DNA of 64,000 bases from Candidatus Levyibacteriota bacterium (GCA_016182235.1 JACOXT010000004.1:28537-92536); one strand, 5' to 3'; positions 16,890 to 35,134 are shown, numbered from the stretch's first letter. The notes: a model not told the origin generated them from the sequence alone. Numbers and translations: made by a program.

Positions 16890-17216
16890 TCAGCAGCCGA
16901 ATCCAAATGTTTTAATGCAGGGGACTTGAGTGACTTCGAATATAAGGTTTCGTATGAAAAAAGAAAATAGAACAAGCAAAAGCCCCACAATTGCAAATAT
17001 AAGCGTGTTTCTTGCCGATTCAAGAACTTTTGGATCTCCCGCAGAATGCATATACTTATAACCGCTAAAAATTATAAATACCAATGAAGTAATTCCCACA
17101 AACATTAAAAGAGCATTTATGATATTTAAGAAAACAGCAGGAATACAAGAAAGGGTGGCAACGCCATTCTCAACACAGTTAATTTTTAAAAATTCATCCC
17201 ATTGAAACTGAGGCAT
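16890..17216 (-). CDS. T4SS pilin-like protein (VirB2/TrbC-like), paralog 1
   Basis: Two-TM hairpin with the shared motif FSGYKYMHSAGDPKVLESARNTLIFAIVGLLLV. Confidence 0.7.
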   Translation of the reverse strand: MPQFQWDEFLKINCVENGVATLSCIPAVFLNIINALLMFVGITSLVFIIFSGYKYMHSAGDPKVLESARNTLIFAIVGLLLVLFSFFIRNLIFEVTQVPCIKTFGFGC

Positions 17217-17285
17217 AATTTAAGACTAGCAGAGAGAAAGCAAAAAAACAATAGTCTACAAAAAGCGTTTGATAAGCAAGAGAAG

Positions 17286-17750
17286 CTAGGAAGTAGGAGC
17301 AACTATTTTTGGAATCTTTAGATCAGTAAGGCTCAAATCGAAGGCCGCAAGAACAAGAGAAACAATAAAAATTGCCAGGAAAACAACTATAAGTCCGACT
17401 ACAGCGGCGATAATATGGTTTCTTGCCGCCTCAACTTGATCTTTTTCTCCTCTTGAAGTTATCCACTTTACCCCTCCATATAAGAGATACAAAAGTGCAA
17501 TAACAACAGCAATTACTATAATGGCAATTACTATATTGCCTAGTGTTTTAGAAGTTTGGTTTCCACCAATTGCACATAAGACATCAAGAAAGGGATTAAC
17601 TTCTTTACCGGGTCCGACTCCAACACACGGATCCACTTCTGTTTGCGCAAATGCGGGAAAAGCTAAAAGAGGATAAAGGAATGAAGCTTGAATAAAGAGA
17701 AATAATTTCTTCATTAAATTTATAGTAGAGGGTGTTTTCGCATTTGTCAA
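17286..17750 (-). CDS. T4SS pilin-like protein, paralog 2 (likely start at MKKLFLF, nt 17714)
   Basis: It has a signal peptide plus the motif YGGVKWITSRGEKDQVEAARNHIIAAVVGLIVV. Confidence 0.7.
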   Translation of the reverse strand: MTNAKTPSTINLMKKLFLFIQASFLYPLLAFPAFAQTEVDPCVGVGPGKEVNPFLDVLCAIGGNQTSKTLGNIVIAIIVIAVVIALLYLLYGGVKWITSRGEKDQVEAARNHIIAAVVGLIVVFLAIFIVSLVLAAFDLSLTDLKIPKIVAPTS

Positions 17751-17764
17751 GGGGTATCTTAGCT

Positions 17765-18097
17765 TTAATTTGACCCCAAAAGCTTTATTCCAAAAAATCC
17801 TCCTAAAAGACTTAATATAAATATTGTGAAGAAGATAACAAGTAACCCAATAATCGCGTATCTTAATCTTTCTCTGCCGTGAGCGAATCTTTCTTTATCT
17901 CCTCCTGATGTCATCATGTTGAATCCTGCAAGGAAGATGCTATAAACAGAAAAAATAAGCGCAGCAAGAATCAAAAATTCGATGACAACAGCAATGATAT
18001 TTTGGCCTCTTGGGAAAAGCCCGCCAGTCGGCACACCAGTTGGCAAGCCGATATCTATATTCGGAAATCCCGGTATTGAAAACGCAATCTTTTCCAT
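17765..18097 (-). CDS. T4SS pilin-like protein, paralog 3
   Basis: Carries the motif LAGFNMMTSGGDKERFAHGRERLRYAIIGLLVI. Confidence 0.65.
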   Translation of the reverse strand: MEKIAFSIPGFPNIDIGLPTGVPTGGLFPRGQNIIAVVIEFLILAALIFSVYSIFLAGFNMMTSGGDKERFAHGRERLRYAIIGLLVIFFTIFILSLLGGFFGIKLLGSN

Positions 18098-18098
18098 A

Positions 18099-18195
18099 TG
18101 ATTAATGATTGATGATTTCTGATTAATGAAAAAAATAATTATATTTTCTCAATTCTATATTCTTAAATCTTTAATCATTAATCTTAAATCAATTC
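18099..18195. repeat. Inverted pair of heptamer arrays forming a hairpin between two pilin genes
   Basis: The left arm is TGATTAA/TGATTGA/TGATTTC/TGATTAA (18099-18126). The right arm is TCTTAAA/TCTTTAA/TCATTAA/TCTTAAA/TCAATTC (18161-18195). The arms are mutually complementary. Confidence 0.8.
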
Positions 18196-18199
18196 AGTC

Positions 18200-19450
18200 C
18201 TACGGATTGAATCCGGGTATATGCAAAATATCCACTCCAATTACCTGAAGTATTACAAATGAGAATATGATAAACAAAAGCCCGATGATTGCGGATAATA
18301 GCTGGCCTCGAGCCGCCTGAAGAGCTTCCGGATTTCCCTGAGATGCTATGAATCTATATCCTGAAAGAATAATCAAGATTAATGCAATTCCTCCGGCCAA
18401 CCCCAAAACTATGCTATATATACGAGTTACAAAGTCCTTAGGTTGTGTACTAATACCGCCAATCGCTGTGTTAATTGTTCTGCATATTTTGTTATCATCA
18501 TTCTCGTCGGTCGGATTTCCATTCTCGTCAACCCATTCAGTGCAAACAGCAGCATTAGTCGGCGCAATATAAATATCGAAATTTACACACTTATATCGGG
18601 TGACATTATCTTCTACCGCAAATCTGCAGACTTTTCCCTCGGGACAGTTGTTTTTGCCCGGATCGCACTCAGATGTTCCCGGAGGGGCAGGTCGACAACA
18701 AAACTGTCCATTACAATCATCGCTTTTTCCTAAAAGTAGTGCGCCAGCAAAGATTGGACATTCGGAGGCTTTATTAACACAGATATCAGGAGAACTGCAA
18801 GTCACAAGAGTTTTTTGGCAGCATATTTCAGATTTACCACAATAATTTTCTCTTGGTCCCAGCGAATTTCCTCCATCGTTGCGACATTCTCCTTCTGATG
18901 CACAATAATTAGGAGATAGGCAAGCCGTTCCCGGATCTGGCGGAGCTGGTTGGCAGCATATTTCAGGACTCTCACATTTCTTATCTACTAGTGGACTTCC
19001 GTTATTTGTTTTACATTCATCACTTGATGTGCAATAATTGGGGACTGAACACAATTGTTGAATTGGAATTGGGGTGGGGGTGGGGGTAGGAGTAGGGGCA
19101 TCAGCACATTGTAAGGCGTTGCAAAAATTACTGCAGCATTGATTGTTTTGTATACATCCCTTGCCGTTTGATTGGCAGAATGGAGTTGGAGTAGGCGTAG
19201 GTTTGCCGGTTGGGGTGGGAGTGAGTGTTGGAGTAGGAGTTCGTGTGGGCGTTGGGGTCCCGAATTGGTGGGGACAGCTATTGTTCGGATCATCGCAATA
19301 CTGTCCGAAGTCATCTCTTAGACACTGGTCGTTAGGGGAGCATGTGTCAGCGCCGCAGTTGCCATTACAGTGACTTGCTTGCGCGGAATTTACAGGAACT
19401 AAAAAAAGAAGTAAAAACAAAAACAAACCAAATAATACCTTAATCTTCAT
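18200..19450 (-). CDS. Secreted Cys-rich modular protein with a C-terminal T4SS pilin-like domain (pilin fusion)
   Basis: It has a signal peptide, PT linkers, and three CxxP(N/D)xC...EC...(I/F)CC(Q/R)P modules. The C-terminal motif is LSGYRFIASQGNPEALQAARGQLLSAIIGLLFI. Confidence 0.7.
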   Translation of the reverse strand: MKIKVLFGLFLFLLLFLVPVNSAQASHCNGNCGADTCSPNDQCLRDDFGQYCDDPNNSCPHQFGTPTPTRTPTPTLTPTPTGKPTPTPTPFCQSNGKGCIQNNQCCSNFCNALQCADAPTPTPTPTPIPIQQLCSVPNYCTSSDECKTNNGSPLVDKKCESPEICCQPAPPDPGTACLSPNYCASEGECRNDGGNSLGPRENYCGKSEICCQKTLVTCSSPDICVNKASECPIFAGALLLGKSDDCNGQFCCRPAPPGTSECDPGKNNCPEGKVCRFAVEDNVTRYKCVNFDIYIAPTNAAVCTEWVDENGNPTDENDDNKICRTINTAIGGISTQPKDFVTRIYSIVLGLAGGIALILIILSGYRFIASQGNPEALQAARGQLLSAIIGLLFIIFSFVILQVIGVDILHIPGFNP

Positions 19451-19451
19451 G

Positions 19452-19898
19452 TTATTCAGTTCTATCTCCTACCATACGAATTATTCCGTCTGATTTATCC
19501 ACAAAAACCTCTATGGTGTAATCCGGAATTTCCGGTGATCGAAGATAATATGGATTATCTAGCGTCATACCAAATATCCACATTTCTTTTTTTGCACGTT
19601 CTTTATACAAGGGGGGTATGCGGTAAGAGGTTTCTTCTTTTTTTACATATTCTACTTTTCCCGGATGTTTTTGAAGGACGATATCTATTGCTTCCTCGCA
19701 GGATATCTCTCCATCAACTGATTGGTAATTAGAACAAAGGTTAGAGTAAACATTATTTTGTGAATTGGTTGGCTGAATAATGGCTGGTTGATTTGGGATA
19801 TTGGTTTCTTGAGGTTTTGTATTATTTGTCCATAGGAGAAAAACTACTATTACAATAACAGTCAAAAGAATAAATACAAGAATATTTGTTCTTCCCAC
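19452..19898 (-). CDS. Membrane-anchored hypothetical protein (possibly PepSY-like)
   Basis: An N-terminal TM helix. EISCEEAIDIVLQKHPGKVEYVKKEE vaguely resembles PepSY. Confidence 0.35.
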   Translation of the reverse strand: MGRTNILVFILLTVIVIVVFLLWTNNTKPQETNIPNQPAIIQPTNSQNNVYSNLCSNYQSVDGEISCEEAIDIVLQKHPGKVEYVKKEETSYRIPPLYKERAKKEMWIFGMTLDNPYYLRSPEIPDYTIEVFVDKSDGIIRMVGDRTE

Positions 19899-19936
19899 AT
19901 ATTTATAGTAGTAGACCCAAGAAAGAATTGCAATAT

Positions 19937-20785
19937 CTAAAGAGTGTGTGGCAAGTGGTGCTTGAAGGAGTTTTTGTTGGCATAATCAATAATTTTTTGC
20001 GCGTTTGGAAAACCAATTTTGGAAATTTCTGAAATAGTCATTTTTTTATCAAAATAAAGAAACAAAACATTGTCAGCCTCTTTGTATGAAAATCCAAATT
20101 CACCTTCATCGCTTTGTCCCTCCCAAAGCCCTGCGGTTGGAGGCTTGTCAATTATATTTTGTGGGATTTTAAGATATCTGGCAAGTTGATAAACTTGCGT
20201 CTTATATAGGTGCTGTATGGGTTCAAAATCAGACGCCTCATCTCCATGACGAGTGAAATATCCTAAAAGATGCTCAGATTTGTTTTCTGTTCCCGCGACA
20301 AGGCAATTGTGTTTCTTGGCAAGATCAAAAAGAATAATCATTCTTACACGAGCCATGATATTGCCGAGACGGATACGGTTCACCTCGGAGGAGTCATTTC
20401 GCAACACCTCGAAGGTGGCCGACTCGCCCGGCGAAGCCTTGGCGAAGCGGGGATGGACTCCTTCGAGGTGGGATTGGAACGCCCTCACCATAGGTTCAAT
20501 AGACAGTTCATAAATATTTTCTTTTGGAATCTTTGCTTCTTTTAAAATCGGCTCTATCTCATTAAAATAAGATTTAAAATAATAAAGATGTGCGACGAAA
20601 ATGTTTTGAGGGGCAAGAACTTCTCTCAAAAGATAAAAACTGGTTGTTGAGTCAATTCCGCCTGACATTCCTATAACAACCTTTTCAAAACCACTATCTT
20701 GCAATGTCTTTCTAATAAAGGAGGTAATTTTGTTTGTTTCGGCAAAAGGATTTATGTTAAGTAGATTGTTGTTCAATTGTTTCAT
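19937..20785 (-). CDS. nadE: NH3-dependent NAD+ synthetase
   Basis: PP-loop SGGIDS (VIGMSGGIDSTT) and the C-terminal family pattern. It carries an in-frame GC-rich palindromic insert at 20405-20470. Confidence 0.85.
   Translation of the reverse strand: MKQLNNNLLNINPFAETNKITSFIRKTLQDSGFEKVVIGMSGGIDSTTSFYLLREVLAPQNIFVAHLYYFKSYFNEIEPILKEAKIPKENIYELSIEPMVRAFQSHLEGVHPRFAKASPGESATFEVLRNDSSEVNRIRLGNIMARVRMIILFDLAKKHNCLVAGTENKSEHLLGYFTRHGDEASDFEPIQHLYKTQVYQLARYLKIPQNIIDKPPTAGLWEGQSDEGEFGFSYKEADNVLFLYFDKKMTISEISKIGFPNAQKIIDYANKNSFKHHLPHTL
20405..20470. repeat. GC-rich palindromic element, long form, inside nadE
   Basis: 11-bp inverted repeats: CACCTCGAAGG at 20405-20415 and CCTTCGAGGTG at 20460-20470. 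The core CCCGGCGAAGCCTTGGCGAAGCGGGG is at 20427-20452. GC content is far above the surroundings. Confidence 0.8.
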
Positions 20786-20825
20786 TGTTGTCGCTCGTTT
20801 CGCTCGCTCATTGTTATATTGTTAG

Positions 20826-20857
20826 CAATGGAGCAATGTAACAATGCAACAATGATA
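20826..20857. repeat. Octamer array CAATGNNN x4 in the nadE 5' leader
   Basis: CAATG starts at 20826, 20834, 20842 and 20850. On the nadE mRNA strand this reads CATTGTTG CATTGTTA CATTGCTC CATTGCTA. Confidence 0.75.
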
Positions 20858-20864
20858 GTGGAAA

Positions 20865-21524
20865 CTATAAGTATAGTTTCTTTTGTATTATATACTCTTC
20901 AATCTTTTCCGGCACGAGGACGGTTATTGACTTTCCTTCTTTAACTCTTTTTCGTACTTCAGTGGATGAGATGTTAATTGGAATGAAATGTAGCCAAATT
21001 AGCTTCCCACCTCGAAGGTGGCCGAATGGACTCCTTCGAGGTGAACGAATGTGTCTCGAAACTATTATTAATCCAAACTTTTCTATTATTTCTCTCCAGT
21101 TCTTCCATTTTTTAAAATCTTTTATATTATCAGAACCGATTATCCAAAAGAAATGGTCACTTGGAGATTGTTTTTGCAAAGTTTTTAGAGTGTCAATAGA
21201 ATAACTCGTTGATTGTTTTCTAAGTTCTAGATCAGAGACTTCTATGTCTCTTTCGTCATTCTGGCTTGTCCAGAATCTCTTATTGCCGCTAGGGATTCTG
21301 GAGTCGCTCCGCTCCCCAGAATGACGTTTATAAAGTTCATTTGCTAGTAATTTTGCCATTTCGAGTCTGTGGCGAGAGATTGACATTTTTTTAGCAAAAG
21401 GGTGAATTCTCGCAGGCATCAGTATTACTTTTTGGATTATTTGAGATTTCAAAAGACATCTGGCAATTGCTAAATGACCATTGTGCGGGGGATCAAAGCT
21501 GCTACCCAAAATAGCGGTGTTCAT
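20865..21524 (-). CDS. nadD: Nicotinate-nucleotide adenylyltransferase
   Basis: GSSFDPPHNGHLAIA (HxGH motif) and ISSTEVR (the ISST motif). It contains two in-frame palindromic inserts. Confidence 0.85.
   Translation of the reverse strand: MNTAILGSSFDPPHNGHLAIARCLLKSQIIQKVILMPARIHPFAKKMSISRHRLEMAKLLANELYKRHSGERSDSRIPSGNKRFWTSQNDERDIEVSDLELRKQSTSYSIDTLKTLQKQSPSDHFFWIIGSDNIKDFKKWKNWREIIEKFGLIIVSRHIRSPRRSPFGHLRGGKLIWLHFIPINISSTEVRKRVKEGKSITVLVPEKIEEYIIQKKLYL
21008..21043. repeat. GC-rich palindromic element, short form, inside nadD
   Basis: It has the same 11-bp arms as the nadE element (CACCTCGAAGG 21008-21018, CCTTCGAGGTG 21033-21043) with a 14-nt loop. Confidence 0.8.
21254..21326. repeat. 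Nested palindromic element (CGTCATTCTGG ... CCAGAATGACG) inside nadD
   Basis: The outer 11-bp inverted repeats are at 21254-21264 and 21316-21326. Inner sub-hairpins include CTGGCTTGTCCAG. It is translated in frame as HSGERSDSRIPSGNKRFWTSQNDE. Confidence 0.75.
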
Positions 21525-21583
21525 GGTTTGTGCTTATTTTAACCCGTTTGGCCAATATTGGCAAGACGAAACAAGTTTAAAAT

Positions 21584-21646
21584 AATAGACGGTAGAAGAT
21601 GGAGGATAGAAGGTGGTATTTTGAAGATAGAAGATTGAGGATAGAC
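21584..21646. repeat. Purine-rich heptamer array (9 units), left arm flanking the four-helix-bundle ORF
   Basis: The units are AATAGAC GGTAGAA GATGGAG GATAGAA GGTGGTA TTTTGAA GATAGAA GATTGAG GATAGAC. Confidence 0.85.
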
Positions 21647-21648
21647 TA

Positions 21649-22011
21649 CTAAAAGGTTTTCCAGTTGTTTCGAAGATTAGTAAGTTTTCCTCCTAATAAC
21701 AGGTATCTATTGATAAGGTCGTTGCAAAAATTCTTTTCCCAAAAAACTAAATCTCTTGCCAAGCTGATATGGACTTCCATTTCATTACAAGATCCAATTG
21801 CTGAATCTAAATGCAGCTTGAATTGTTTATCAAATCTTCTTTTTGCCCAACCTTCTGCAATATTTGCAGGAACAGATTTAGAGGCTTTTCTTAACTGCAA
21901 GCCAAGGTCATTCCTTTCAAATAGGGGAAGTTTATTAACATTTCTATTAACTGTAAGAGCTAATTCGTAGGCTTCTTTATACACTTCCAAATCTCTAAAG
22001 CTCTTGATCAT
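21649..22011 (-). CDS. Four-helix-bundle protein (23S rRNA intervening-sequence protein family)
   Basis: 120 aa. FRDLEVYKEAYELALTV and ANIAEGWAKR motifs are typical of this family. Confidence 0.8.
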   Translation of the reverse strand: MIKSFRDLEVYKEAYELALTVNRNVNKLPLFERNDLGLQLRKASKSVPANIAEGWAKRRFDKQFKLHLDSAIGSCNEMEVHISLARDLVFWEKNFCNDLINRYLLLGGKLTNLRNNWKTF

Positions 22012-22026
22012 AAATAGAGTTTATAG

Positions 22027-22089
22027 TTTCTACCTTCCATCTTCAACCCTCAAAGTACTATCTTCTACCTTCTACTTTCTATCGTCTAA
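22027..22089. repeat. Pyrimidine-rich heptamer array (9 units), right arm, inverted relative to 21584-21646
   Basis: The units are TTTCTAC CTTCCAT CTTCAAC CCTCAAA GTACTAT CTTCTAC CTTCTAC TTTCTAT CGTCTAA. The reverse complement aligns unit by unit with the left arm at roughly 75% identity. Confidence 0.85.
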
Positions 22090-22202
22090 TCTCTGTCAGG
22101 TTCGCGGTCAGAAAAAAGTCAAGCTATTTAAGGAGTTTGGGAGTAGACTGCGGGCCATGATCCTTCGACAAGCTCAGGATCATACTGAACGGAGTTGAAC
22201 GT

Positions 22203-25200
22203 ATGAAACAGGAATTATTGAACCAAACCTTGACAAGCCCACCTCAAACACCCTATTCTAGGGATGGAGCTATTTTTATGGAGGTAGTGAAAGATATGCC
22301 TAATTCCGCAAACCAACCCAAAAACCCAGAGAGAACAGAAAATAGGCCTTTAGATAAAGTAAGGGTAGAAGTAAACAACACATCCAAAAAAGAAGAAACT
22401 TCTTCAAAATCTCCCCAGTCAGTTTCCGAAGAAAAGAAGGGGTCTCCTGTCGAAGCAAAAATTACAAAAGTCGATTCTAAAAAAATAGATAATGAGGAGT
22501 TAAGAAAAGAATGGCATAAAGTATTTACACCAGAAGAGTTAAAAAATCCCGATACAAGATCAACTATAGAATTAGCTATCAAACTGGGCTATAGTCCTGA
22601 GAGCATTACATCAAAAGGCCCATTGGAATTTAAAGCAAAAGATGTTATCGCAAATGCTTTACTTGATGATCAACAGCGCATTGAGAAGGCTGAAGAACTG
22701 CTTGGGCGATCTTTGTCAATAAAACAACGAGAATTACTTCTGAAAGCACACTATGCATCAAAAGGTAAGACTGGTAAAGATGGTCGTGGGGCAGGAGTGT
22801 TCAATTTAGAAAGAAAACAACTTGCAGAAGAAGCAAGGATACTTAGTAACGAAGAAGGTTTTACTGACAAAGAAAGACGTATACTTATTGAAGCTGGTCT
22901 AGCAGCAACTCTTATTCCTAATATCTATACGGATCCCACTTTGCAACTTATTGCCGAACAATACATTAATGAGGTAAACCGTATAAATGCAACTAATCCA
23001 AGTGAACATGTAGACCCCAATTTTCTCATTCGACTAATGACTGATGTTGAAAGACGAGCTCGTGACGGCCTAGTAGACAGAACGCAAGCACTAAATCTAC
23101 TAAATGAATTTCAAACCATATTTGCTGATGAGAATCCTGCTCAAGGAGAGAGCCCTTTGACTAGAGAGATTAATCTAATCAAAGGTCTGCAAGGACAAGA
23201 CAGAAGGGATGCATTACTTAATTTATTGAGGGCTTATCCTCCCCTGAGTGCTCCTTTACCGCACGAAATTATAGAATTAACAATGGAGGATGATGAATCC
23301 TTTGAATCCTTAGTCAATAGAATTGTTTCTCTTCCACTTGACAAAGAGACCTCTGACTATACTCTCGGACTCTATGGCTCAGGAAATCTTGAAACGATTA
23401 GCGATGCACTTACTCAAAAATTAGATACTGAGACAGATCCCGATGAGAGAGATAGACTTAGTAGGTTAAAAGATAGATTTAATCTGGCTACAGAATCATT
23501 TACTTTAACCCACAATATGAATACTCGAATAGTCACTGGAGAAATACAGGAATTTATTCGTACCGCGGAAAGAATTCTACCCCCTCATCTTAATTATCTT
23601 CAAAAATTAAACGGTGTAAGCGAAGCGATGAGAATTTATGAAGAAACCTATGATAGATATCTTGCAAAGTATGGATGGATGTATCCTTTTGCATCAGTAC
23701 TATTGCATTACGAAGTTTTCAGCAAGCTAAGAGAACTAAATGATGCGGGGGGGCTTGGCGTAGCAAAGGCAATGGATGGGGAACTAAGATTAATAAAACT
23801 GGAAGAGTGGGAGTTAAGAAGAGCATATAATATAGCAAGAAAATTTTATAACAATACATTTAGATCATCAGAAAAAGTTGCTACCGGGACAGTCCCTCGC
23901 AATATGGAAGGTGAGGAGAGACAGGAAATATTGGCAGAAATCCAAGACGCGATAGATTCAGGAAACACAAATAAAGAGGCTTTACTTAGAAATGAACTGG
24001 CTGACGCTGAAGAAAGGGGACAATCTAGGTATTCTTCTTTTGCGTTAGAATCAGCTGCCAGAATTATGAATCCAATACAGCTTCTTATATATCGTTTTCA
24101 AATAGCGGGTGAGGAACATGGATTGGTTTTCCTTAAAAAAGCAAAAGAGTACTATCTAGAATTTTTGAGACATAACTATAAACTTGGAATAAATAAAATA
24201 ACCACTCTTGGTGGGGTAAACGTTGAAGAGATGGAGGTTGGAGGAGTATTTGGGGTTTCAGGATTCTATAGTTCATGGAGAACAGAAAATATCGCCATAA
24301 GCCAGATGAAAGTTAATATTGGTGGACAGGAATTAACAATAAGAAGATGGTTAGCGGAAACTACATATGAAATTGAACAAGCTAATACGGCATTCAAAGA
24401 TGCAGGGCAGAATAGACAGTTAAAGCATAACGCGCAAGTACAATTAGCTGATGCCCTAAAGCCCCTTATTGATAATGTTCATGTTGGATTAGGCATGTTG
24501 TTAAGACAGCCAGCTTTTGGTGGTGAAATAGGTTATGAAGCAAGAAAGTTACTATGGGAGAAAATTGTGAAAGGAAATGATCCAGCAAACAATAATCCAA
24601 GGGAAGGAAATCTAGATGTAGCAATAAACTATTTAACAAAGTTAAAAATTCAGGATGGAAGTATAAGATCACTAGAAGAAATTAAATCAAGTGGTGGAAA
24701 TTATTGGGACGTTCCTTCAGGAGACCCATTGACGACTCCATGGGAAATACTGAGAAGAAAAATTCTTTTGCAACATCAGAAAAATATTAGGAAATCGTTT
24801 GATACTAATGTCAATTTAATTCCTGATCAAGATTTTGATGCAAATGAAACTCGTTTAATACTTACAATTAAAGAAGAAGGCAGAAAGCTCGCTCAACATC
24901 TGGCCGACATATCATTTCCATATGTACCCTTCATGAATGACGCGCCTTTCGAAATTTTTGATTATACGCTGGCAGGAGACGAGGTTTATAGAAGAAGGGC
25001 AGGAGGAGATATACCTAGCTATTTTGAAGGGTCTAACGCGTTTGTGGCTATTGTTGATAATCCTGGCGGAATTGGTGATGAAAAAGCAATGGAGAATTTC
25101 CTTAAGCTTGAAAGAGGAGTTGAATCTCCTCAAGGACGACCAGATGCCCAAAGAAGAACATACCCACTTTTTAAAGCTTGGCTAGAATGGGTAATGACCA

Positions 25201-25502
25201 AGCCTGGACAAAGACAAGAGCAATTTAAAGCGATTAAGCAAACATTATTACATCCTACCTCTGAAGCACAGGAACATTCAGGTATGGAGGCAATGTCAAT
25301 AAATGAAGAACAAGCAAGAAAGTTTATAGACCATGCTGTATTAGCAAACTTTTTGAATGAGGAGCTGGCAGATGAGCTAAAAAAGGAAAAAAATCTTAAA
25401 TTTGTAGGTATGCTTTGGGCACTCTTTAGAGATATGTTTATTACAGTTATTCCTGCAGCTGTCGTATATAGCTTTGGTAAAGAGGTATTGAAAACAAAGT
25501 GA
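22203..25502 (+). CDS. Large hypothetical protein (1099 aa) with a C-terminal TM anchor
   Basis: A long uninterrupted ORF, mostly helical and charged, with no motif I recognise. The C-terminal hydrophobic helix is FVGMLWALFRDMFITVIPAAVVYSFG. Confidence 0.6.
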   Translation: MKQELLNQTLTSPPQTPYSRDGAIFMEVVKDMPNSANQPKNPERTENRPLDKVRVEVNNTSKKEETSSKSPQSVSEEKKGSPVEAKITKVDSKKIDNEELRKEWHKVFTPEELKNPDTRSTIELAIKLGYSPESITSKGPLEFKAKDVIANALLDDQQRIEKAEELLGRSLSIKQRELLLKAHYASKGKTGKDGRGAGVFNLERKQLAEEARILSNEEGFTDKERRILIEAGLAATLIPNIYTDPTLQLIAEQYINEVNRINATNPSEHVDPNFLIRLMTDVERRARDGLVDRTQALNLLNEFQTIFADENPAQGESPLTREINLIKGLQGQDRRDALLNLLRAYPPLSAPLPHEIIELTMEDDESFESLVNRIVSLPLDKETSDYTLGLYGSGNLETISDALTQKLDTETDPDERDRLSRLKDRFNLATESFTLTHNMNTRIVTGEIQEFIRTAERILPPHLNYLQKLNGVSEAMRIYEETYDRYLAKYGWMYPFASVLLHYEVFSKLRELNDAGGLGVAKAMDGELRLIKLEEWELRRAYNIARKFYNNTFRSSEKVATGTVPRNMEGEERQEILAEIQDAIDSGNTNKEALLRNELADAEERGQSRYSSFALESAARIMNPIQLLIYRFQIAGEEHGLVFLKKAKEYYLEFLRHNYKLGINKITTLGGVNVEEMEVGGVFGVSGFYSSWRTENIAISQMKVNIGGQELTIRRWLAETTYEIEQANTAFKDAGQNRQLKHNAQVQLADALKPLIDNVHVGLGMLLRQPAFGGEIGYEARKLLWEKIVKGNDPANNNPREGNLDVAINYLTKLKIQDGSIRSLEEIKSSGGNYWDVPSGDPLTTPWEILRRKILLQHQKNIRKSFDTNVNLIPDQDFDANETRLILTIKEEGRKLAQHLADISFPYVPFMNDAPFEIFDYTLAGDEVYRRRAGGDIPSYFEGSNAFVAIVDNPGGIGDEKAMENFLKLERGVESPQGRPDAQRRTYPLFKAWLEWVMTKPGQRQEQFKAIKQTLLHPTSEAQEHSGMEAMSINEEQARKFIDHAVLANFLNEELADELKKEKNLKFVGMLWALFRDMFITVIPAAVVYSFGKEVLKTK

Positions 25503-25549
25503 TTTCTCGTAGGACTTCTTAGATCAGTCTTTATATCTTGAATTCTTAC

Positions 25550-27172
25550 TTAACGAAACATGCGTTTGAGTACTCCTTGTATTCCTTCAGCCTTAGTAGG
25601 AGAAGGCAATTTAGATTTATAGGCAACTATTGTCCCTACAGTTTCCCTACCTATTCCAATCGCACCTCCGACTGGTGCAAAAGCAGATCCGGTCTCAACC
25701 TTTGGAGCCTTGAGCATAGCTTTGAGCATGTTGACGACATTCGGCGTCATAAGAATAATGCCAAGCCCAATTAAAGCTCCGATATGATCTTCGTTGGCGC
25801 GGGCTCCAATAAGAGGAGGAACGAACAAGGTATTTTCCGGAAATCCGCCAAAAGCTGCCATAAATACTTTTCCAAGTAAAAACATGGCAATTACAGCAGG
25901 AAATGCGGCGAGATTTGCGATCAAATCTCGGAACCATCCTCCAACATTTATCGGACTTCCAGGAATTAATCCGCCAATAATCCAAAATGGTGCTAAGATA
26001 ACATCAATTAATATATGAACATAAGCAAAAAGAAGAGTAAACCAAAGTCTAAAAAGAGCAATTAAAAGTGCAATTGAGATTATTATAAAAGCAAGAAATC
26101 CAACAAACGTACCTAGTACTACGTGAAGCATTTTGAATAGTATATCTGCAACTGCATTTGTTGCTACATTTTCTATATTGGTAATCCAATTAAGAGGGTT
26201 CCACCATGTGCCTCCTTCGCCTGCACCAGGAAGAGCCACACCAACAACTACTTTAGACACAAATGTAGAAAAACTATTTAAAAAAGGGTCATAAAAATTT
26301 GCAAGAACTTCACTAATTGCTAGAGAAGGTTCTTCTATAAGCCTCCACATTCCACCATAAGCATTTCCTCCTCCTGCGCCAACTTCTGCTGCTGCTGAGA
26401 AAGGATTAGTTTTTTGTGAAAGTTGCGTAGGAAGACTTTTGTCTAATCCAGCGGAATCAACAATAAGATTACCAATTACATGAGTTGATACATACATCAT
26501 GTCTATCAAAAACCCCGCTATAGCATAGGAAAAAGTTACAAGAAGTATGCCGATTATAATTTTGGGTATCTGGTTTTGGATAGACATTACAGTTCTAGGA
26601 TCAATTTTTACTCTAAGCATAATTGCGAGTCCTATAACAACAAATACCAAAACAAAGAAAAGATAAACGATATTTCTAAATCCTTCCCACACCCTTAGAA
26701 GTGGTTTAAGTCCTTCAAACCCAGTTCCTGTTTGAGCATAAGCTATTTTTGAAATACCGAAATTCTGCGCCAGATATTGAAAATAGTCGCCGGTACGAAG
26801 AGGGGGAGTATAAAGAGAGGCTATCAAATTGTTCATTCCTCCAATTGCTCCTCCAATCTCTCCTTTTTCCAAATCCCCTTTTGGCAAAAAACCAATTTTT
26901 CCTGTTTTCGGATCAGCTCCAAGGCAGGTGCCTTTGGGATTTGTAGGATCAATGCCTGAAATCTGGCAGGAAAGCGCGCTTGCTACCTCAATCATCACAG
27001 TCTGAGTCCAGTTATGTAAGTTATTTGGAACTTCGGGGTTGGTATTGGGAGGTGGAGGATTTATTCGGGGAAGCTCTTGAGCATTGACTGAAGTAGGAAG
27101 TAGGAAGTATGAAGTAAGAAGTAAGAGAGCAGAGAAAATGAAAACAAAAAGGAGTCGGGCAGGAATTTTCAT
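25550..27172 (-). CDS. VirB6/TrbL-like polytopic membrane protein
   Basis: 540 aa with a signal peptide and then at least 6 TM helices. The size and topology match T4SS channel subunits found next to VirB4 in Gram-positive/CPR loci. The assignment rests on context and topology only. Confidence 0.5.
   Translation of the reverse strand: MKIPARLLFVFIFSALLLLTSYFLLPTSVNAQELPRINPPPPNTNPEVPNNLHNWTQTVMIEVASALSCQISGIDPTNPKGTCLGADPKTGKIGFLPKGDLEKGEIGGAIGGMNNLIASLYTPPLRTGDYFQYLAQNFGISKIAYAQTGTGFEGLKPLLRVWEGFRNIVYLFFVLVFVVIGLAIMLRVKIDPRTVMSIQNQIPKIIIGILLVTFSYAIAGFLIDMMYVSTHVIGNLIVDSAGLDKSLPTQLSQKTNPFSAAAEVGAGGGNAYGGMWRLIEEPSLAISEVLANFYDPFLNSFSTFVSKVVVGVALPGAGEGGTWWNPLNWITNIENVATNAVADILFKMLHVVLGTFVGFLAFIIISIALLIALFRLWFTLLFAYVHILIDVILAPFWIIGGLIPGSPINVGGWFRDLIANLAAFPAVIAMFLLGKVFMAAFGGFPENTLFVPPLIGARANEDHIGALIGLGIILMTPNVVNMLKAMLKAPKVETGSAFAPVGGAIGIGRETVGTIVAYKSKLPSPTKAEGIQGVLKRMFR
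27090..27124. repeat. Heptamer array GAAGTAG x5 inside the VirB6-like signal-peptide region
   Basis: The units are GAAGTAG GAAGTAG GAAGTAT GAAGTAA GAAGTAA. On the minus strand they are translated as LLLTSYFLLPTS. Confidence 0.85.
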
Positions 27173-27209
27173 TCTTTCTTAGTTTGGATTATTCTTTCAC
27201 AAAAGTCAA

Positions 27210-27228
27210 GCGGAGAGGGCGAGATTCG
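27210..27228 (-). repeat. Orphan 19-nt copy of a tRNA-Ser 3' end (T-loop to discriminator)
   Basis: The reverse complement CGAATCTCGCCCTCTCCGC is identical to 29347-29365 of tRNA-Ser(UGA). It lies 6 nt downstream of the GIY-YIG stop. Confidence 0.8.
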
Positions 27229-27234
27229 CCACGG

Positions 27235-27525
27235 TCATTCGACGTGGCGTCCCGTCGGATGACGGGACGGACCCCCTCTTTTTATAATATCACGGTACTG
27301 TTGTTTTAGCATACGTATACCCTCTGTAGATTTCAGATACTTTTCTCTTCTGATCGCATCACTCTTCAACAGATAAGCTTCATAGCCAATAAGCTTAACA
27401 GGTCTGGAACTTTTTGTTGATTTAACTTTACCGCTTTGATGATCTTTAATTCTTAGTCGTAAATCGTTTGACTGGCCTTTATAAATATTTCCACTTGATA
27501 ACATCAGGAAATAAACATAGTGCAT
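27235..27525 (-). CDS. GIY-YIG domain protein (UPF0213-like small nuclease)
   Basis: It has YVYFLMLSSGNIYKGQSNDLRLRIKDH (GIY...YxG) and an REKYLK motif. Its start codon is 2 nt from the tRNA-Ser(GGA) 3' end. Confidence 0.8.
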   Translation of the reverse strand: MHYVYFLMLSSGNIYKGQSNDLRLRIKDHQSGKVKSTKSSRPVKLIGYEAYLLKSDAIRREKYLKSTEGIRMLKQQYRDIIKRGGPSRHPTGRHVE

Positions 27526-27526
27526 G

Positions 27527-27613
27527 CGGTGAGGGAGGGATTCGGACCCTCGATAGTCTTACGACTATGCACGCTCTCCAAGCGTGTCGATTCAACCGCT
27601 CTCGCACCTCACC
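27527..27613 (-). tRNA. tRNA-Ser(GGA)
   Basis: The acceptor is GGTGAGG/CCTCACC and the anticodon stem-loop is CACGC-TTGGAGA-GCGTG. It has a long variable arm and the T-loop GGTCCGAATCC. CCA is not encoded. Confidence 0.85.
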
Positions 27614-28052
27614 TTATTATTTTTTTGGCTTCTTGCCAAACTTTTTTGTCCGATGGGTAAGTCAGTCTTTTTTCAACCACATCTATTGGCAGCCATTCAA
27701 CATTTTCCATCTCCAGATCATGCTTACTTATATCGCCAGAAACATATTTCATTAGAAAATAATACACTTTTTTCTTGATTGTCTCATTCTGAAATTTAAA
27801 CCAATATTCTACCGGAGTTAGAGCCTTAATAATTTTCGCATCAACTCCTGTTTCTTCTCTGACTTCCCTAAGTGCTGCTTCCTCTTTTGTTTCTCTTCTT
27901 GATTCCTGATTCCTAATTCCTGATTCCTTCTTATCGATTAATCCTTTTGGAAAAACCCATCCATGATGTTGAGAGTGCTGCGCAACCAAAATAAATGTCT
28001 GGCCACTTTCTTTTTTATAAACTACTCCTCCAGCTGAAAATTGAAATTTCAT
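27609..28052 (-). CDS. NUDIX hydrolase
   Basis: The Nudix box is split by an insert: FPKGLIDKKE-[SGIRNQESRR]-ETKEEAALREVREETG. The stop codon overlaps the tRNA-Ser(GGA) 5' end. Confidence 0.8.
   Translation of the reverse strand: MKFQFSAGGVVYKKESGQTFILVAQHSQHHGWVFPKGLIDKKESGIRNQESRRETKEEAALREVREETGVDAKIIKALTPVEYWFKFQNETIKKKVYYFLMKYVSGDISKHDLEMENVEWLPIDVVEKRLTYPSDKKVWQEAKKIIR
27899..27926. repeat. Heptamer array TGATTCC x4 inside the NUDIX gene
   Basis: The units are TGATTCC TGATTCC TAATTCC TGATTCC. Confidence 0.85.
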
Positions 28053-28054
28053 AG

Positions 28055-28129
28055 TGTCCCCGGCGGGAGTTGAACCCGCAAATCTTCAGGTTCGGAACCT
28101 GACGCTCTATCCAATTGAACTACGAGGAC
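28055..28129 (-). tRNA. tRNA-Arg(CCG)
   Basis: GTCCTCGTAGTTCAATTGGATAGAGCGTCAGGTTCCGAACCTGAAGATTTGCGGGTTCAACTCCCGCCGGGGACA. The anticodon loop is TTCCGAA. Confidence 0.85.
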
Positions 28130-28136
28130 TCCAATG

Positions 28137-28222
28137 CGGAGAGAGTGAGATTCGAACTCACGGTCGCCTAAGGCGACAGCGGTTTTCGAAACCGCCGCAC
28201 TCGTCCACTATGCGATCTCTCC
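28137..28222 (-). tRNA. tRNA-Ser(CGA)
   Basis: The acceptor is GGAGAGA/TCTCTCC and the anticodon loop is TTCGAAA. It has a long variable arm and the T-arm GTGAGTTCGAATCTCAC. Confidence 0.85.
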
Positions 28223-28241
28223 CATTTTCGACTTTCTTTGG

Positions 28242-28314
28242 TGTGCCCGGTGGGAGTTGAACCCGCAATCGCTGGGTCCGCAACCCAGTGCTCTATCCAT
28301 TAAGCTACGGGCAC
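28242..28314 (-). tRNA. tRNA-Arg(GCG), with a C-A mismatch in the T stem
   Basis: GTGCCCGTAGCTTAATGGATAGAGCACTGGGTTGCGGACCCAGCGATTGCGGGTTCAACTCCCACCGGGCACA. The anticodon loop is TTGCGGA. Confidence 0.7.
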
Positions 28315-28315
28315 A

Positions 28316-28432
28316 GAGAGTAGAAAACAGAAAGTAAAAAGCTGAAGGTAGATTATTGGAAATGTTTAACTCCATCCTCTAGCTTCTATCATCAAAATAC
28401 TATCTTCTACCTTCCATCTTCCACCGTCTATT
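28316..28432. repeat. Heptamer-array hairpin without cargo (6 purine-rich units, 12-nt spacer, 9 pyrimidine-rich units)
   Basis: The left arm is GAGAGTA GAAAACA GAAAGTA AAAAGCT GAAGGTA GATTATT (28316-28357). The right arm is CTCCATC CTCTAGC TTCTATC ATCAAAA TACTATC TTCTACC TTCCATC TTCCACC GTCTATT (28370-28432). The right arm closely matches the reverse complement of 21584-21646. Confidence 0.85.
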
Positions 28433-28469
28433 TTATCCTATTGCAGATTATGAAGCAAATTTGACTAGA

Positions 28470-29096
28470 TTAACTTGTCTTTTCCAGGGGGAAATTGCGG
28501 GATAGCCAATCGCCGGATTTCTCCATGAATGTTGGTTTTATATATTCCCTATACGGAAGATAGGGGAGTAAGGCTGTCTTAATATGTTCTCGATCTACAT
28601 TCCCAAGCGTCAATGTTAATTCGCCGGGAATAAATGAATGAGTTCGTATATGAACAACATCTACTCCCTCTCTTTTTTTAAAGTAGAAGTCATATAATTC
28701 CTGCCAGAGGAAAAAATGATCCTCTATTGTTAGTCCTTCTGTACTTATTCTATAGCGGAAATTTGAAGGCGGAACCGTATTTAAGGCAAAAGCGACAAAC
28801 ACTAAAGACGCAACAACAAGCATCAAGAGGTATTGAGAAAATAGAAAAAGAATAATTTCAATAAGAAGCATTATTAGAATACTTGTTAAATAATATTGAC
28901 TGCCTCTTTTTCTAAAAGGTCTCCCGGGAGCACTCCACTCAAGTAGTGTTTTAATCTCATGTAGGTTATCGTCATGATGAATATTTTTAGTTTGCTGAGG
29001 ATCATTTTTGTCAACTTGAGGCTCAGAAAGCTCGAGAGGCTCTTTGGGGAGATCCAAGGGCTCTTTTGGAAGAAAAGGTTGTTCTTGAGCAGCCAT
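28470..29096 (-). CDS. Hypothetical 2-TM membrane protein (PH-like C-terminal domain)
   Basis: 208 aa, with an N-terminal repeated PKEPL(D/E)L, a central TM hairpin and a soluble C-domain. Confidence 0.5.
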   Translation of the reverse strand: MAAQEQPFLPKEPLDLPKEPLELSEPQVDKNDPQQTKNIHHDDNLHEIKTLLEWSAPGRPFRKRGSQYYLTSILIMLLIEIILFLFSQYLLMLVVASLVFVAFALNTVPPSNFRYRISTEGLTIEDHFFLWQELYDFYFKKREGVDVVHIRTHSFIPGELTLTLGNVDREHIKTALLPYLPYREYIKPTFMEKSGDWLSRNFPLEKTS

Positions 29097-30077: not shown

Positions 30078-30826
30078 TCACGTTTTTTATGCCCATTTAA
30101 CTTAAAATAATTTATAGTTTCAGATATTCTATCAGTTACAATGTCTTTAATTCCAGCTTGATTGAAAAGTCTTAGGCCAGCATCGTTATTTATTACTCCT
30201 GCCATAACATTAAAGCCATTTTTTTCAAAGCGCGCTTTTAGTTTGAGCAACCTTCCTCTTGCGACTAGAGCTCTAAAAAATGTTTGGCTTCCGGGAATAC
30301 TATCAAGCCAGCCTAGAAAAATTCCATAGCTTTTTGGAGGCCTTTTTATAAAAGAGTATCTTGGGAAACGTAAAAATTGGTCTACCCTAAGTTTTGGATA
30401 GTAAGATTGCGCGCTTAATGAGTTTTTGAGAATAAAAGAAAACCCGACAACGTGAATTTGAGACCATAATTTTTTTTCCCGGGTTTTTTTAATAATAGCA
30501 TCAATCAGAAGCGGAGAAGATGATTTAACTTCCAGAAAGAATTCCGCTTGTTTCTGTGGGATATACTCAAAAAGCTCATCTAGCGTCAAAAGTTCTTCTG
30601 CGGCGTGCTTTCGCATTTCTAGAAGATCAGAGAATTTTGTATCTGAAATCTTAACACTTACGCCATTCAGCCTTAATTTGTTATTATGATTTACAACTAC
30701 TTTGTTATCGGATGTTAAACGCAAATCACACTCAATTCCTTCTGCGCCTGCCTTAATTGCGGCATCAAAAGCTCGTATTGTATTTTCTTGGTAAAGCTTG
30801 CTATAACCCCTATGGGCAATTATCAT
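30074..30826 (-). CDS. Glycerophosphodiester phosphodiesterase
   Basis: The GDPD signature is IIAHRGYS...ENTIRAFDAAIKAGAEGIECDLRLTSD. Confidence 0.8.
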   Translation of the reverse strand: MIIAHRGYSKLYQENTIRAFDAAIKAGAEGIECDLRLTSDNKVVVNHNNKLRLNGVSVKISDTKFSDLLEMRKHAAEELLTLDELFEYIPQKQAEFFLEVKSSSPLLIDAIIKKTREKKLWSQIHVVGFSFILKNSLSAQSYYPKLRVDQFLRFPRYSFIKRPPKSYGIFLGWLDSIPGSQTFFRALVARGRLLKLKARFEKNGFNVMAGVINNDAGLRLFNQAGIKDIVTDRISETINYFKLNGHKKRD

Positions 30827-31500
30827 GTTGTAAAGTCCAGTGCCTTTAGTGAGGCAGACTTCTTTTTATAATTGTATCTTTTAATAATAAAGTAAATAAG
30901 AGCCATTATCAATAGGATTATTGCTCCAACAAACAAACTATCACCAAAAAATCTTTTATACGCTTCTTCTCCCAAATAGAAGATCAGAATATCCGGAAGA
31001 CTTGCAATAAGCGTTGCTGCGGCAAATTTTTTGTAAGAAATTTTTGTAAATCCGGCAATATAGCTTGAAAAATCAATAACCGGCACTGTAAATAGTCTTA
31101 ATGCAACGATAGCTAAGAATTGTTTTTTAGTAGACATTTGTTTTTCAAGTTGGCGAATTTTCTGAAGAGGAATAAATTTTGCGACTAAAGGCTCTCTATA
31201 CTTTCTCGCAAGCCAAAAGGCAAGAGATGTACCAATAAATATTCCAGTTACTGTGTAAACATAAGTATTGAACCATCCCAATAACGGAACCAAAGCAAAA
31301 GATACAATTCCTCCCGGGATAAAAGGGAAAACTATGCCTATGATCCTGATTAAAACAAGGGAAAATGCCGCGATATAAAGATGCTCTTTGGTAAAAGTGG
31401 TTTCGGCCAGTTTGTATGGATTGATAAATATAAAAAAGGCCAATAATAAAGAAAGTGCTATTAGCGCGAGAATACTAATAGCAATATATTTTTTCCTCAT
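30823..31500 (-). CDS. DedA/VTT (TVP38/TMEM64)-family membrane protein
   Basis: 225 aa, multi-TM, with an FPFIPGG-type motif (IVFPFIPGGIVSF). Confidence 0.65.
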   Translation of the reverse strand: MRKKYIAISILALIALSLLLAFFIFINPYKLAETTFTKEHLYIAAFSLVLIRIIGIVFPFIPGGIVSFALVPLLGWFNTYVYTVTGIFIGTSLAFWLARKYREPLVAKFIPLQKIRQLEKQMSTKKQFLAIVALRLFTVPVIDFSSYIAGFTKISYKKFAAATLIASLPDILIFYLGEEAYKRFFGDSLFVGAIILLIMALIYFIIKRYNYKKKSASLKALDFTT

Positions 31501-34478: not shown

Positions 34479-35134
34479 TATTTTGCCTTTCCTATAAGGT
34501 CTCCGATTATATGAGTTGCTTCTCTTGGTTTTGGAACTGCTGTTGCTTCAAAATTAATTTCTGTTCCTGCTGTTTGGACAAAAAGATTGCCGTAATTAAA
34601 AAGAGTGGGAATAAATCCGGATTGAGTATAATTTACATCCTGAACATGACTAAGTTTAGTTACTGCAATATTATGTATCACAATATCTGAATAATCTATA
34701 TCAACGACGCGTTCTGAGGTAACGATAAATACATTATAAAACCAATGCAAGAAATTTACGAACACAAAAGAAAATACGATTAGATAATAAAAAAGAATAT
34801 AGACAGTCATGAAATGGCTTGCAATAGGAGAAGAAAGAATTCGTATCTCAAACAAGGAAGAAAATATTGCAATTATTAAAGGTATAAAAATAAGAACAAT
34901 ACTTATAGCTATCCAATATAAATTTGTTATAAAATGAGACCTTAAAAATAAGATAATAACCTCACCTTGTTTTTGAGTCTGAAACGTGACTCCTTTAGGA
35001 TCCTTACAGAAAGAGGAGAAAATATTCATATGCGGTCCATCTTGCTTTAACAATGAAAACAATTTCAATCCTCCAACATGCTTTTTTATTATATCTCCTT
35101 TATGGTTTTTTGGAGCAACGAAAATATCATTCAT
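34478..35134 (-). CDS. Hypothetical membrane protein (bPH/YdbT-like topology)
   Basis: 218 aa with a TM hairpin and then a soluble beta-rich C-domain. Confidence 0.45.
   Translation of the reverse strand: MNDIFVAPKNHKGDIIKKHVGGLKLFSLLKQDGPHMNIFSSFCKDPKGVTFQTQKQGEVIILFLRSHFITNLYWIAISIVLIFIPLIIAIFSSLFEIRILSSPIASHFMTVYILFYYLIVFSFVFVNFLHWFYNVFIVTSERVVDIDYSDIVIHNIAVTKLSHVQDVNYTQSGFIPTLFNYGNLFVQTAGTEINFEATAVPKPREATHIIGDLIGKAK

Follow-up and report, generated by a model that had tools for sequence, protein, structure and literature searches.

A gene-less heptamer hairpin between two pilin genes of a Candidatus Levybacteria genome occupies a variable insertion site

In a 64-kb stretch of a Candidatus Levybacteria genome (Candidate Phyla Radiation, CPR), to which the analysis of this genome was confined and which is called the window below, two genes for type IV secretion system (T4SS) pilins are separated by a hairpin-like spacer of 102 nt (18098-18199), counted from the stop codon of the first gene to the ATG of the second. 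Both genes are read from the minus strand. The upstream gene (18200..19450), taken from the list of open reading frames (ORFs), encodes a protein of 416 aa in which a signal peptide and repeats of Cys-rich and PT-rich type are accompanied by a T4SS pilin domain at the C-terminus, and its stop codon TAG lies at 18202-18200. Both flanking ORFs matched PF18895 (T4SS_pilin), the longer one at its C-terminus only (residues 337-404, E 6e-8). Because the match is restricted to these residues the 416-aa ORF was regarded as a fusion, as a preliminary description of this DNA had also done. The downstream gene (17765..18097, ATG at 18097-18095, PF18895 E 2.7e-6) encodes a pilin of 110 aa, identical to an NCBI protein of a Candidatus Levybacteria metagenome-assembled genome (MAG), HYT07_03560. 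Two more pilins, a PrgI-family protein and a VirB4-like ATPase follow further downstream, as found by protein family search.

Sequence inspection and Tandem Repeats Finder confirmed all details of the preliminary description: the spacer consists of two inverted heptamer arrays around an AT-rich loop. On the mRNA strand it opens with GAC, TGAATTGA, TTTAAGA, TTAATGA, TTAAAGA, TTTAAGA, ATATAGA and ATTGAGA, followed by the loop; after the loop come TCA, TTAATCA, GAAATCA, TCAATCA, TTAATCA and a single T before the ATG at 18097. The 5' arm (18161..18199, minus strand), which was also supported by alignment, begins 3 nt past the fusion-pilin stop codon with heptamers of the type GATTNAN (GATTTAA, GATTAAT, GATTAAA, GATTTAA), and these extend inward as GAATATA, GAATTGA and GAAAATA to about 18140. 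The loop, delimited by sequence and fold, has 31 nt (18130..18160, minus strand) and contains the inner degenerate heptamers, a TATAAT box and a U-run. The 3' arm (18098..18129, minus strand), supported by repeat search, inverted-repeat search and alignment, is made of the complementary heptamers TTAATCA, GAAATCA, TCAATCA and TTAATCA and stops 1 nt short of the ATG. Tandem Repeats Finder reported period 7 for both arrays, with 4.6 copies and 80% matches at 18098-18129 and 4.3 copies and 82% at 18161-18190. In an inverted-repeat search the arms paired over 34 nt (18097-18130 with 18153-18186) at 76% complementarity, and three extra pairings (I2-I4), each shifted by whole heptamers, bore out the suggestion that many pairing registers are available. 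The 19-bp core of the hairpin has 17 Watson-Crick pairs and no G:U pair. Arrays of the GATTNAN type are confined to 18098-18190 in the window, where no other period from 3 to 15 gave arrays at the same threshold, except 14, which is twice 7. A census of 912 kb of Levybacteria DNA at one threshold gave 82 period-7 arrays against 1 after shuffling, and 3-23 arrays for other periods. For period 7 this is an about 80-fold over-representation, by which chance low-complexity sequence was ruled out. An origin of transfer (oriT) or a CRISPR-like element was also rejected: the same build occurs beside many unrelated genes, and the 7-nt units are contiguous, without spacers.

Folding of the mRNA strand gave -19.6 kcal/mol, compared with -14.8 +/- 2.7 kcal/mol for 200 dinucleotide shuffles (z -1.79), nine of which equalled it, so that the expected advantage over shuffled controls was found and is marginal. 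The opposite strand folds at -19.3 kcal/mol (z -2.63). The centroid structure of the mRNA strand retains the closing helix alone, in which CCGUA at the upstream stop codon is predicted to pair with UAUGG at the start codon. For the start region of the 110-aa pilin (-10..+12) an accessibility of 0.35 was predicted, against 0.47 +/- 0.12; this is below 30 of the 32 other window genes (6th percentile). HIPGFNP forms the end of the fusion pilin and MEKIAFSIPGFPNI the beginning of the next one (18203-18223 and 18050-18076, minus strand). From the IPGF(N)P motif shared by both pilins arise complementary CCCGG/CCGGG stretches, which pair when a longer segment is folded; the motif may also be a processing motif at the protein level.

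The proposal that the structure terminates or attenuates transcription after the fusion gene was not upheld. A terminator scan found none at 18098-18199, where the stem consists mainly of A and U and the U-run is part of the loop, not 3' of the stem; with neither a G+C-rich stem nor a U-tract after it, the hairpin is not an intrinsic terminator. A search of Rfam at E<=1 over 17000-29000 returned tRNAs only, with no match at the hairpin and no rRNA. No Shine-Dalgarno (SD) motif is visible at 18097, as the preliminary description had stated, and this is no local peculiarity, such a motif being present in only 2 of 33 checked window genes. Many window genes instead show a TAnAAT or TGnTAnAAT box 7-12 nt before the ATG (e.g. 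28470-29096, 30823-31500, 35131-36852 and 58148-59068), which suggests that leaderless or very short-leader mRNAs are the norm in this genome. Nearby, at 17722-17750 (minus strand), TTGACA and TACTAT are spaced by 17 nt, and an in-frame ATG (MKKLF...) lies about 10 nt beyond; the TTG listed as start codon for the 154-aa pilin is therefore probably an error, and the gene may have its own promoter and a leaderless-type start.

The hairpin itself holds a promoter-like site, TTAAGA, 17 nt, TATAAT (18138..18166, minus strand), whose -35-like hexamer falls within the last heptamer of the 5' arm, its -10-like hexamer belonging to the loop. If this sigma-70-type site were active (18166-18138), the downstream pilin would be transcribed independently, with the 3' arm as the sole leader, and no hairpin could form on that transcript. 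With 10/12 consensus matches its promoter-like score is the joint best in 2.8 kb, TGATATAAT stands in the corresponding loop of a full-length metagenomic relative (L184, see below), before the four-helix-bundle gene, and Correia elements can create promoters (PMC2649163). The site is, however, a consensus match in AT-rich DNA, where the scan of 2.8 kb found 13 sites against 7.8 +/- 3 in shuffles; its box lies 40 nt before the ATG, while the -10-like boxes of this genome are usually 7-12 nt away, and the other hairpins that were examined do not share this arrangement. We consider it unlikely that the hairpin serves as a promoter carrier.

The identity of the spacer became clear from orthologous loci. 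With the VirB4-like protein 51 loci were retrieved, nearly all from MAGs of Candidatus Levybacteria/Levyibacteriota or unclassified CPR, and every locus having the junction between fusion pilin and next pilin was compared (27 with the window included). The gene order fusion pilin, pilin, pilin, pilin, ..., PrgI, p210, VirB4 is kept in these loci. At 13 of the 27 junctions stop and start codon are 1-10 nt apart and arrays are lacking (e.g. TAA-T-ATG, TGA-TTT-ATG). Eleven junctions carry an insert of 430-610 nt (L001, L003, L007, L018, L020, L023, L043, L050, L053, L054-56, L057), each with one ORF of 119-139 aa. The Pfam scan covered nine of these ORFs, and all nine matched PF05635, the protein of 23S rRNA intervening sequences, with E values from 4e-39 to 4e-14; those of them that were also compared with NCBIfam matched TIGR02436 (four-helix-bundle protein). 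Every insert ORF sits between inverted arrays of short tandem repeats, mostly heptamers, the unit of which varies among loci (TAGCGTC, AAAGTTA, GAATCAT, CGGTTTT, TAGGGTG and others). The 5' array begins 0-5 nt past the upstream stop codon, and in most inserts the 3' array ends about 0-10 nt ahead of the next ATG. In L011 and L052 only a remnant of the 3' arm is left, related to the TAGCGTN family, and the window is the single junction of the 27 with arms and no ORF. Occupied and empty junctions thus number 14 and 13, and the 102-nt spacer of the window represents the arms-only state of a variable insertion site. The window hairpin is therefore an insertion at a stop-start junction that normally measures 1-10 nt, and it shares arm architecture, position and heptamer family with the four-helix-bundle cassettes found at the same site.

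Since the automatic heptamer consensus was noisy, family assignments were based on arm alignments. Alignment places the 5' arm of the window in register with its counterparts in L050, L018 and L020, and the 3' arm with those of L050, L018 and L039, the last being a gene-less hairpin. The family unit in these four loci is GAATNAT / ATNATTC, while the outer four units of the window are GATTNAN / NTNAATC; the change is complementary in both arms (GAAT>GATT and ATTC>AATC), and the inner units are still GAAT. In the VirB4 tree, the sisters L023 (TAGCGTT) and L050 (GAATNAT) carry different families at the junction, and the window (GATTNAN) is sister to L001 (TAGCGTC), with L004 of the same clade empty. 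A composite in L020 (5611-6141), consisting of an orphan GAATNAT 5' arm followed by a complete four-helix-bundle element of the CAATTTT family, looks like one cassette replaced by another, or like nesting. Together, the interleaved families and this composite indicate turnover at the junction, which is a hot spot for repeated insertion and replacement by different heptamer families and not the seat of one conserved regulator.

These loci also bear on the idea that the hairpin evolved as a dedicated device, be it an attenuator, a terminator or an occluder of the start codon, for setting how much fusion pilin is made relative to the next pilin. Its location exactly between two pilin genes and the reduced predicted accessibility of the AUG region would suit such a role, and the latter counts in favour of start-codon occlusion. 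The arrays had, however, been expected at orthologous junctions, and they are absent from about half of them; because 13 junctions with the same gene order do without them, the hairpin is not a conserved pilin-stoichiometry device, and the reading is largely refuted. The missing G+C-rich stem and U-tract, the z score, the absence of an Rfam match and the occurrence of such hairpins beside unrelated genes in many organisms speak against it as well, and we regard it as very improbable. Where arrays occur at orthologous junctions, they flank an inserted PF05635 gene. The hairpin is an insertion of a recurrent class, and any effect that it may have on the pilin ratio is a by-product and not its purpose; the earlier regulatory interpretation is thus partly supported.

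Related elements were found elsewhere in the window. A full-length one (21586..22088, minus strand; Pfam E 1e-22, TIGR02436 E 2.5e-21, arm pairing over 60 nt) consists of a 5' arm at 22012-22088 that starts TAGACG and contains GTAGAAG-type heptamers, a PF05635/TIGR02436 four-helix-bundle gene at 21649-22011 and a 3' arm at 21586-21648 that ends in CGTCTA, all on the minus strand. Proteins 75-90% identical to its product, with the same arms, are present in L001, L007, L043 and L050. A second gene-less hairpin (28315..28430, minus strand), recognized by sequence, tRNA search, fold and arm alignment, shares homologous arms with the full-length element, down to the TAGACG terminus and a GTATTTTGA core, so that the GTAGAAG family is represented twice in the window. 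This hairpin stands at the head of a cluster of four tRNA genes, its 3' arm directly adjoining the 5' end of tRNA-Arg (28314), and it folds at -35.8 kcal/mol on the minus strand, compared with -21.5 kcal/mol on the plus strand. Seven G:U pairs are formed on its sense strand.

For a wider survey, a hidden Markov model (HMM) of the four-helix-bundle protein was built from nine junction-insert proteins and searched against the loci and the window. It found 27 genes in the first 892 kb and 32 with later loci; about 20 of the 27 are flanked by inverted arms of period 7, sometimes 8. On average, a 5' unit and the reverse complement of a 3' unit differ at 1.5 positions within an element and at 3.3 between elements. 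Ten gene-less inverted heptamer hairpins were counted in 0.9 Mb of Levybacteria DNA, eight of them outside the window, and several exactly occupy the spacer from stop to start (L039, L043). The inserts sit exactly between a stop codon and the start codon of the next, usually co-directional, gene.

Heptamer arrays were also observed in frame within genes of the window. The gene for PGK (48510-49616, plus strand) contains three (48590-48620, 48768-48803 and 49361-49391); relative to solved PGKs two of them are 8-residue insertions (ETRDSQHET, SEKRKVKSEK) and the third replaces a variable loop (LSIKYKVLSIKY). A GAPDH-like ORF (56417-57499, plus strand) has an array at 56603-56633, (AATTTCC)4.4, translated as LNFQFPISNFQ. 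In a NUDIX ORF (27609-28052, minus strand) units of TTCCTGA at 27896-27928 give KESGIRNQESR directly before the Nudix box, and in the ORF at 25550-27172 (minus strand) the array (GAAGTAG)5 at 27090-27126 forms part of the signal peptide. The arrays in the GAPDH-like, NUDIX and signal-peptide ORFs could be footprints of the same repeat system. Between a tRNA-Ser gene (27526-27613) and the last-named ORF lies a stand-alone GIY-YIG gene of 96 aa (27235-27525, minus strand), which may be another small selfish gene.

Outside Levybacteria, metagenomes were scanned with the pattern GATTWAW x3.5, which gave at least 120 contigs; the figures that follow hold among the matches listed. Fifty of 128 GATTWAW arrays have an inverted partner within 900 nt, and the pairs mostly enclose loops of 13-50 nt and occupy spacers between ORFs, with the 3' arm against the ATG; some merely bracket ribosomal protein genes. 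The arrays were expected to flank four-helix-bundle genes, and only 1 of the 128 adjoins one (L184; by HMM, two such genes in 120 loci), so that the gene is to be seen as optional cargo and not as a constant partner. The element in L184 has the same GATTNAN heptamer type and polarity as the window hairpin, arranged around a PF05635 gene and starting right after the upstream stop codon. In three contigs (L070 8940-9130, L157 2864-3047 and L109 405-560) one locus was recovered that is identical, with flanks 100% alike, except for 7, 6 and 4 ATAAATC units before the start codon; the copy number of a sibling hairpin thus varies by whole heptamers.

This variation is what would be expected if the array at the AUG acted as a single-stranded A/U-rich leader, or as a protein platform with one heptamer per unit, in a simple sequence repeat (SSR) whose slippage alters the unit number and so tunes expression of a surface pilin, as in contingency loci and in line with proposals made for the TAACTGA arrays of Beggiatoaceae and for Nostoc heptamers. 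The end of the array 1 nt before the ATG is the commonest position of TAACTGA arrays (PMC4679880), heptamer number differs among Coxiella strains (PMC4990558) and governs expression of hmw1A (PMC12721329), and the downstream gene does encode a surface structure. A single-stranded platform would, however, have no use for an inverted pair of arrays, the same hairpins precede housekeeping genes and a tRNA, and no binding protein was identified; such a leader seems to us rather unlikely.

With a Levybacteria four-helix-bundle protein as query, a tblastn search of the PLSDB plasmids gave 35 records, mostly from Nostocales, plus Riemerella and Gemmatirosa. All eight plasmid PF05635 genes examined, from three other phyla, have arrays within 125 nt, with period 7 in six cases and period 8 in two, and these are usually inverted pairs. 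A type III-B CRISPR operon on a plasmid of Picosynechococcus sp. PCC 7003 (L064, NZ_CP016476.1 126152-127290) contains, between cas10 and cmr3 and in the same orientation as these, a four-helix-bundle gene that has period-8 arrays and is set off by spacers of roughly 36 nt; such a placement may account for the reported 'associations' of the PF05635 family with cas genes.

On this evidence, the 102-nt spacer was interpreted as a gene-less palindromic insert of the intervening-sequence (IVS) type that is co-transcribed with the pilin genes, whose stem brings stop and start codon together and which is perhaps cut by RNase III. We lean slightly towards this combined reading, of which the part on identity is much firmer than that on function. 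The two pilin genes would normally be translationally coupled, and the operon context suggests that the insert is transcribed along with them. Its arms would fold into an imperfect AU-rich stem, the base of which would set the upstream stop beside the downstream AUG, and in this way translation of the second pilin could remain coupled to that of the first despite the insert, in a genome that makes little use of SD motifs. The AUG would become free when a terminating ribosome melts the outer part of the stem. Instead of this or in addition to it, RNase III could cut the stem and leave a pilin mRNA with a short leader, by analogy with rRNA IVSs and the H. influenzae hmw hairpin. Most likely, the hairpin is a deletion derivative of a PF05635-carrying element, a descent that we infer.

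Whether the arms matter as RNA is the point at which this interpretation meets its most direct competitor, according to which the insert has the same identity and is an inert scar: a remnant of a four-helix-bundle cassette, or a mobile palindromic element with terminal repeats that act at the DNA level, with decaying arms that play no RNA role and a pilin expressed despite them. Such a scar would fit the 76% complementarity of the arms with mismatches of all kinds, the lack of a G:U bias in full-length elements, the decay series at the junction from the 3'-arm remnants of L011 and L052 to the 13 empty loci, and a fold that barely beats shuffled sequence. The gene-less hairpins speak against it. 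Among the 30 listed, 23 of which have an assignable sense strand, pairing is 87% Watson-Crick, and G:U exceeds A:C on the sense strand (37 vs 17, p 0.009), which is consistent with selection on a sense-strand RNA hairpin. Their placement is also precise, each reaching from a stop codon as far as a start codon or the 5' end of a tRNA, and the change in the window arms is complementary. An inert scar is accordingly possible and is considered doubtful.

Several observations weigh against the co-transcribed, RNA-active insert favoured above. The arms that flank PF05635 genes are 76% Watson-Crick, with G:U and A:C on the sense strand at 64 vs 56 (p 0.52), so that arm pairing in the full-length form is not clearly under RNA-level selection; in the GTAGAAG family the 5' arms of different genomes are more alike than the 5' and 3' arms of one element, and strand-biased mutation could partly explain the G:U bias of the gene-less hairpins. 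The predicted fold of the window hairpin is weak and diffuse, its minimum free energy structure making up 0.7% of the ensemble and 46% of the 5'-arm bases being paired with the 3' arm in a longer context, and a z score matched by nine shuffles lends it weak thermodynamic support. The window yielded no RNase III gene or signature. With respect to mobility, no direct repeat (target-site duplication) was found at the borders of the three window elements and no transposase candidate was identified; we know of no mobilising enzyme for these inserts. No homology is left between the hairpin loop and any PF05635 gene, and the hairpin could instead be the primary form and the four-helix-bundle gene its optional cargo. 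The nearest other relative of the 110-aa pilin in databases has 69% identity, and an exact look-up of this pilin in the contig index gave no match.

In a wider sense the hairpin is one more palindromic insert, and the interest lies in the cross-phylum link between four-helix-bundle genes and heptamer arrays that it exposed. As a joint reading, which we put forward tentatively, PF05635/TIGR02436 genes and inverted arrays of 7-8 nt would be the two halves of cross-phylum selfish 'junction cassettes'. Such cassettes may insert between stop and start of co-transcribed genes or in the spacers of rRNA and tRNA, where the name intervening sequences is used for them, and may be tolerated because their arms, once folded back, are removed from the RNA or bypassed in it. 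The pentameric four-helix-bundle protein may recognise its own heptamer array. The short tandemly repeated repetitive (STRR) sequences of cyanobacteria, which we take to be comparable to the heptamer arrays found here, may, together with the heptamers of Beggiatoaceae and Bacteroidetes, the in-frame inserts in housekeeping proteins and the gene-less hairpins, be arms, miniatures or footprints of such cassettes.

Three puzzles that the searchable literature treats separately are thereby tied together: the function of the S23p protein, unknown since the 1990s; the origin of heptamer repeats, which stand beside start codons in cyanobacteria, giant sulfur bacteria and Bacteroidetes; and the tolerance of inserts inside tightly coupled operons of SD-less CPR genomes. 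The link is drawn because all 8 plasmid genes and about 20 of the 27 Levybacteria genes have arrays and because the pilin junction was repeatedly re-occupied. A literature search that mostly did not reach subscription journals, so that novelty is unproven, found no link of PF05635/S23p genes with heptamer arrays outside rRNA and only the Coxiella IVS within it. For annotation it follows that such spacers and in-frame heptamer inserts belong to a repeat system and should not be taken for gene-specific regulators.

Among known systems, Avd, an accessory protein that works with diversity-generating retroelements (PF22296; NF033474) and that the PF05635 family resembles (PMC10053308), belongs to the same four-helix-bundle superfamily as the cargo protein. 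Weak bAvd/Avd matches were obtained (E 1e-6 to 3e-4), and the cargo proteins reached 21-29 bits against a cut-off of 80, with no reverse transcriptase or template repeat nearby; unlike Avd, the window hairpin itself encodes no protein. [quoted passage not shown] They differ in their unique-sequence arms, many near-identical copies per genome and TA duplications, whereas the GATTNAN heptamer type is single-copy in the 64-kb window and no duplication was seen.

The hairpin of H. influenzae upstream of hmw1A shares the tandem 7-nt repeats just upstream of a surface-protein gene. Its (ATCTTTC)n array is transcribed as one arm of a long hairpin, RNase III processing of this hairpin affects expression, and the number of repeats varies (PMC12721329). 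Repeats make up the left arm alone in that case, the right arm being rich in G, while both arms of the window hairpin are arrays; the hmw1A structure lies in a promoter-proximal 5' untranslated region and has no link to four-helix-bundle genes, and the window hairpin occupies a spacer between cistrons.

TAACTGA-type arrays in Beggiatoaceae, Cyanobacteria and Bacteroidetes comprise 2-40 heptamers, are intergenic and mostly end about 1 nt before a start codon, no mechanism being given (PMC4679880); the 3' array of the window, with 4.6 copies and 1 nt before the ATG, corresponds to this TAACTGA/STRR type. Nostoc heptamers adjoining start codons influence expression in a mode that is unresolved (bioRxiv 10.1101/2022.06.06.494920). 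Arrays of the TAACTGA/Nostoc type occur in SD-poor contexts and occasionally in frame inside ORFs, and their function is unknown. They are direct repeats of one heptamer per genome, with one inverted case noted and no reported link to PF05635, whereas the Levybacteria arrays form inverted pairs of many different heptamers.

The S23p-type IVSs of Coxiella burnetii and Leptospira have, like the elements described here, terminal inverted repeats around a four-helix-bundle ORF; they are co-oriented with the host transcript, and short forms without ORF exist (PMC4990558). In Coxiella the IVS measures 428 nt, lies in 23S rRNA and carries an S23p (PF05635) ORF for a protein of unknown function; its 28-bp terminal stem is cut by RNase III (PMC4990558). 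In the arm beside the ORF start it also carries tandem GACAGAT heptamers, the number of which varies among strains (PMC4990558). PF05635 ORFs have further been reported in rRNA inserts of CPR bacteria (10.1101/2024.02.27.582315). The window hairpin differs in its position, an mRNA operon spacer between pilin ORFs and not an rRNA helix, and, compared with the long IVS forms, in its 31-nt loop without ORF and in arms that are wholly heptamer arrays. It shares with the IVSs the predicted stem, with arms of 34 nt at 76% complementarity and a folding energy of -19.6 kcal/mol, and the PF05635 ORF of the IVSs has its counterpart in the inserts at 11 orthologous junctions and in the window gene at 21649-22011.

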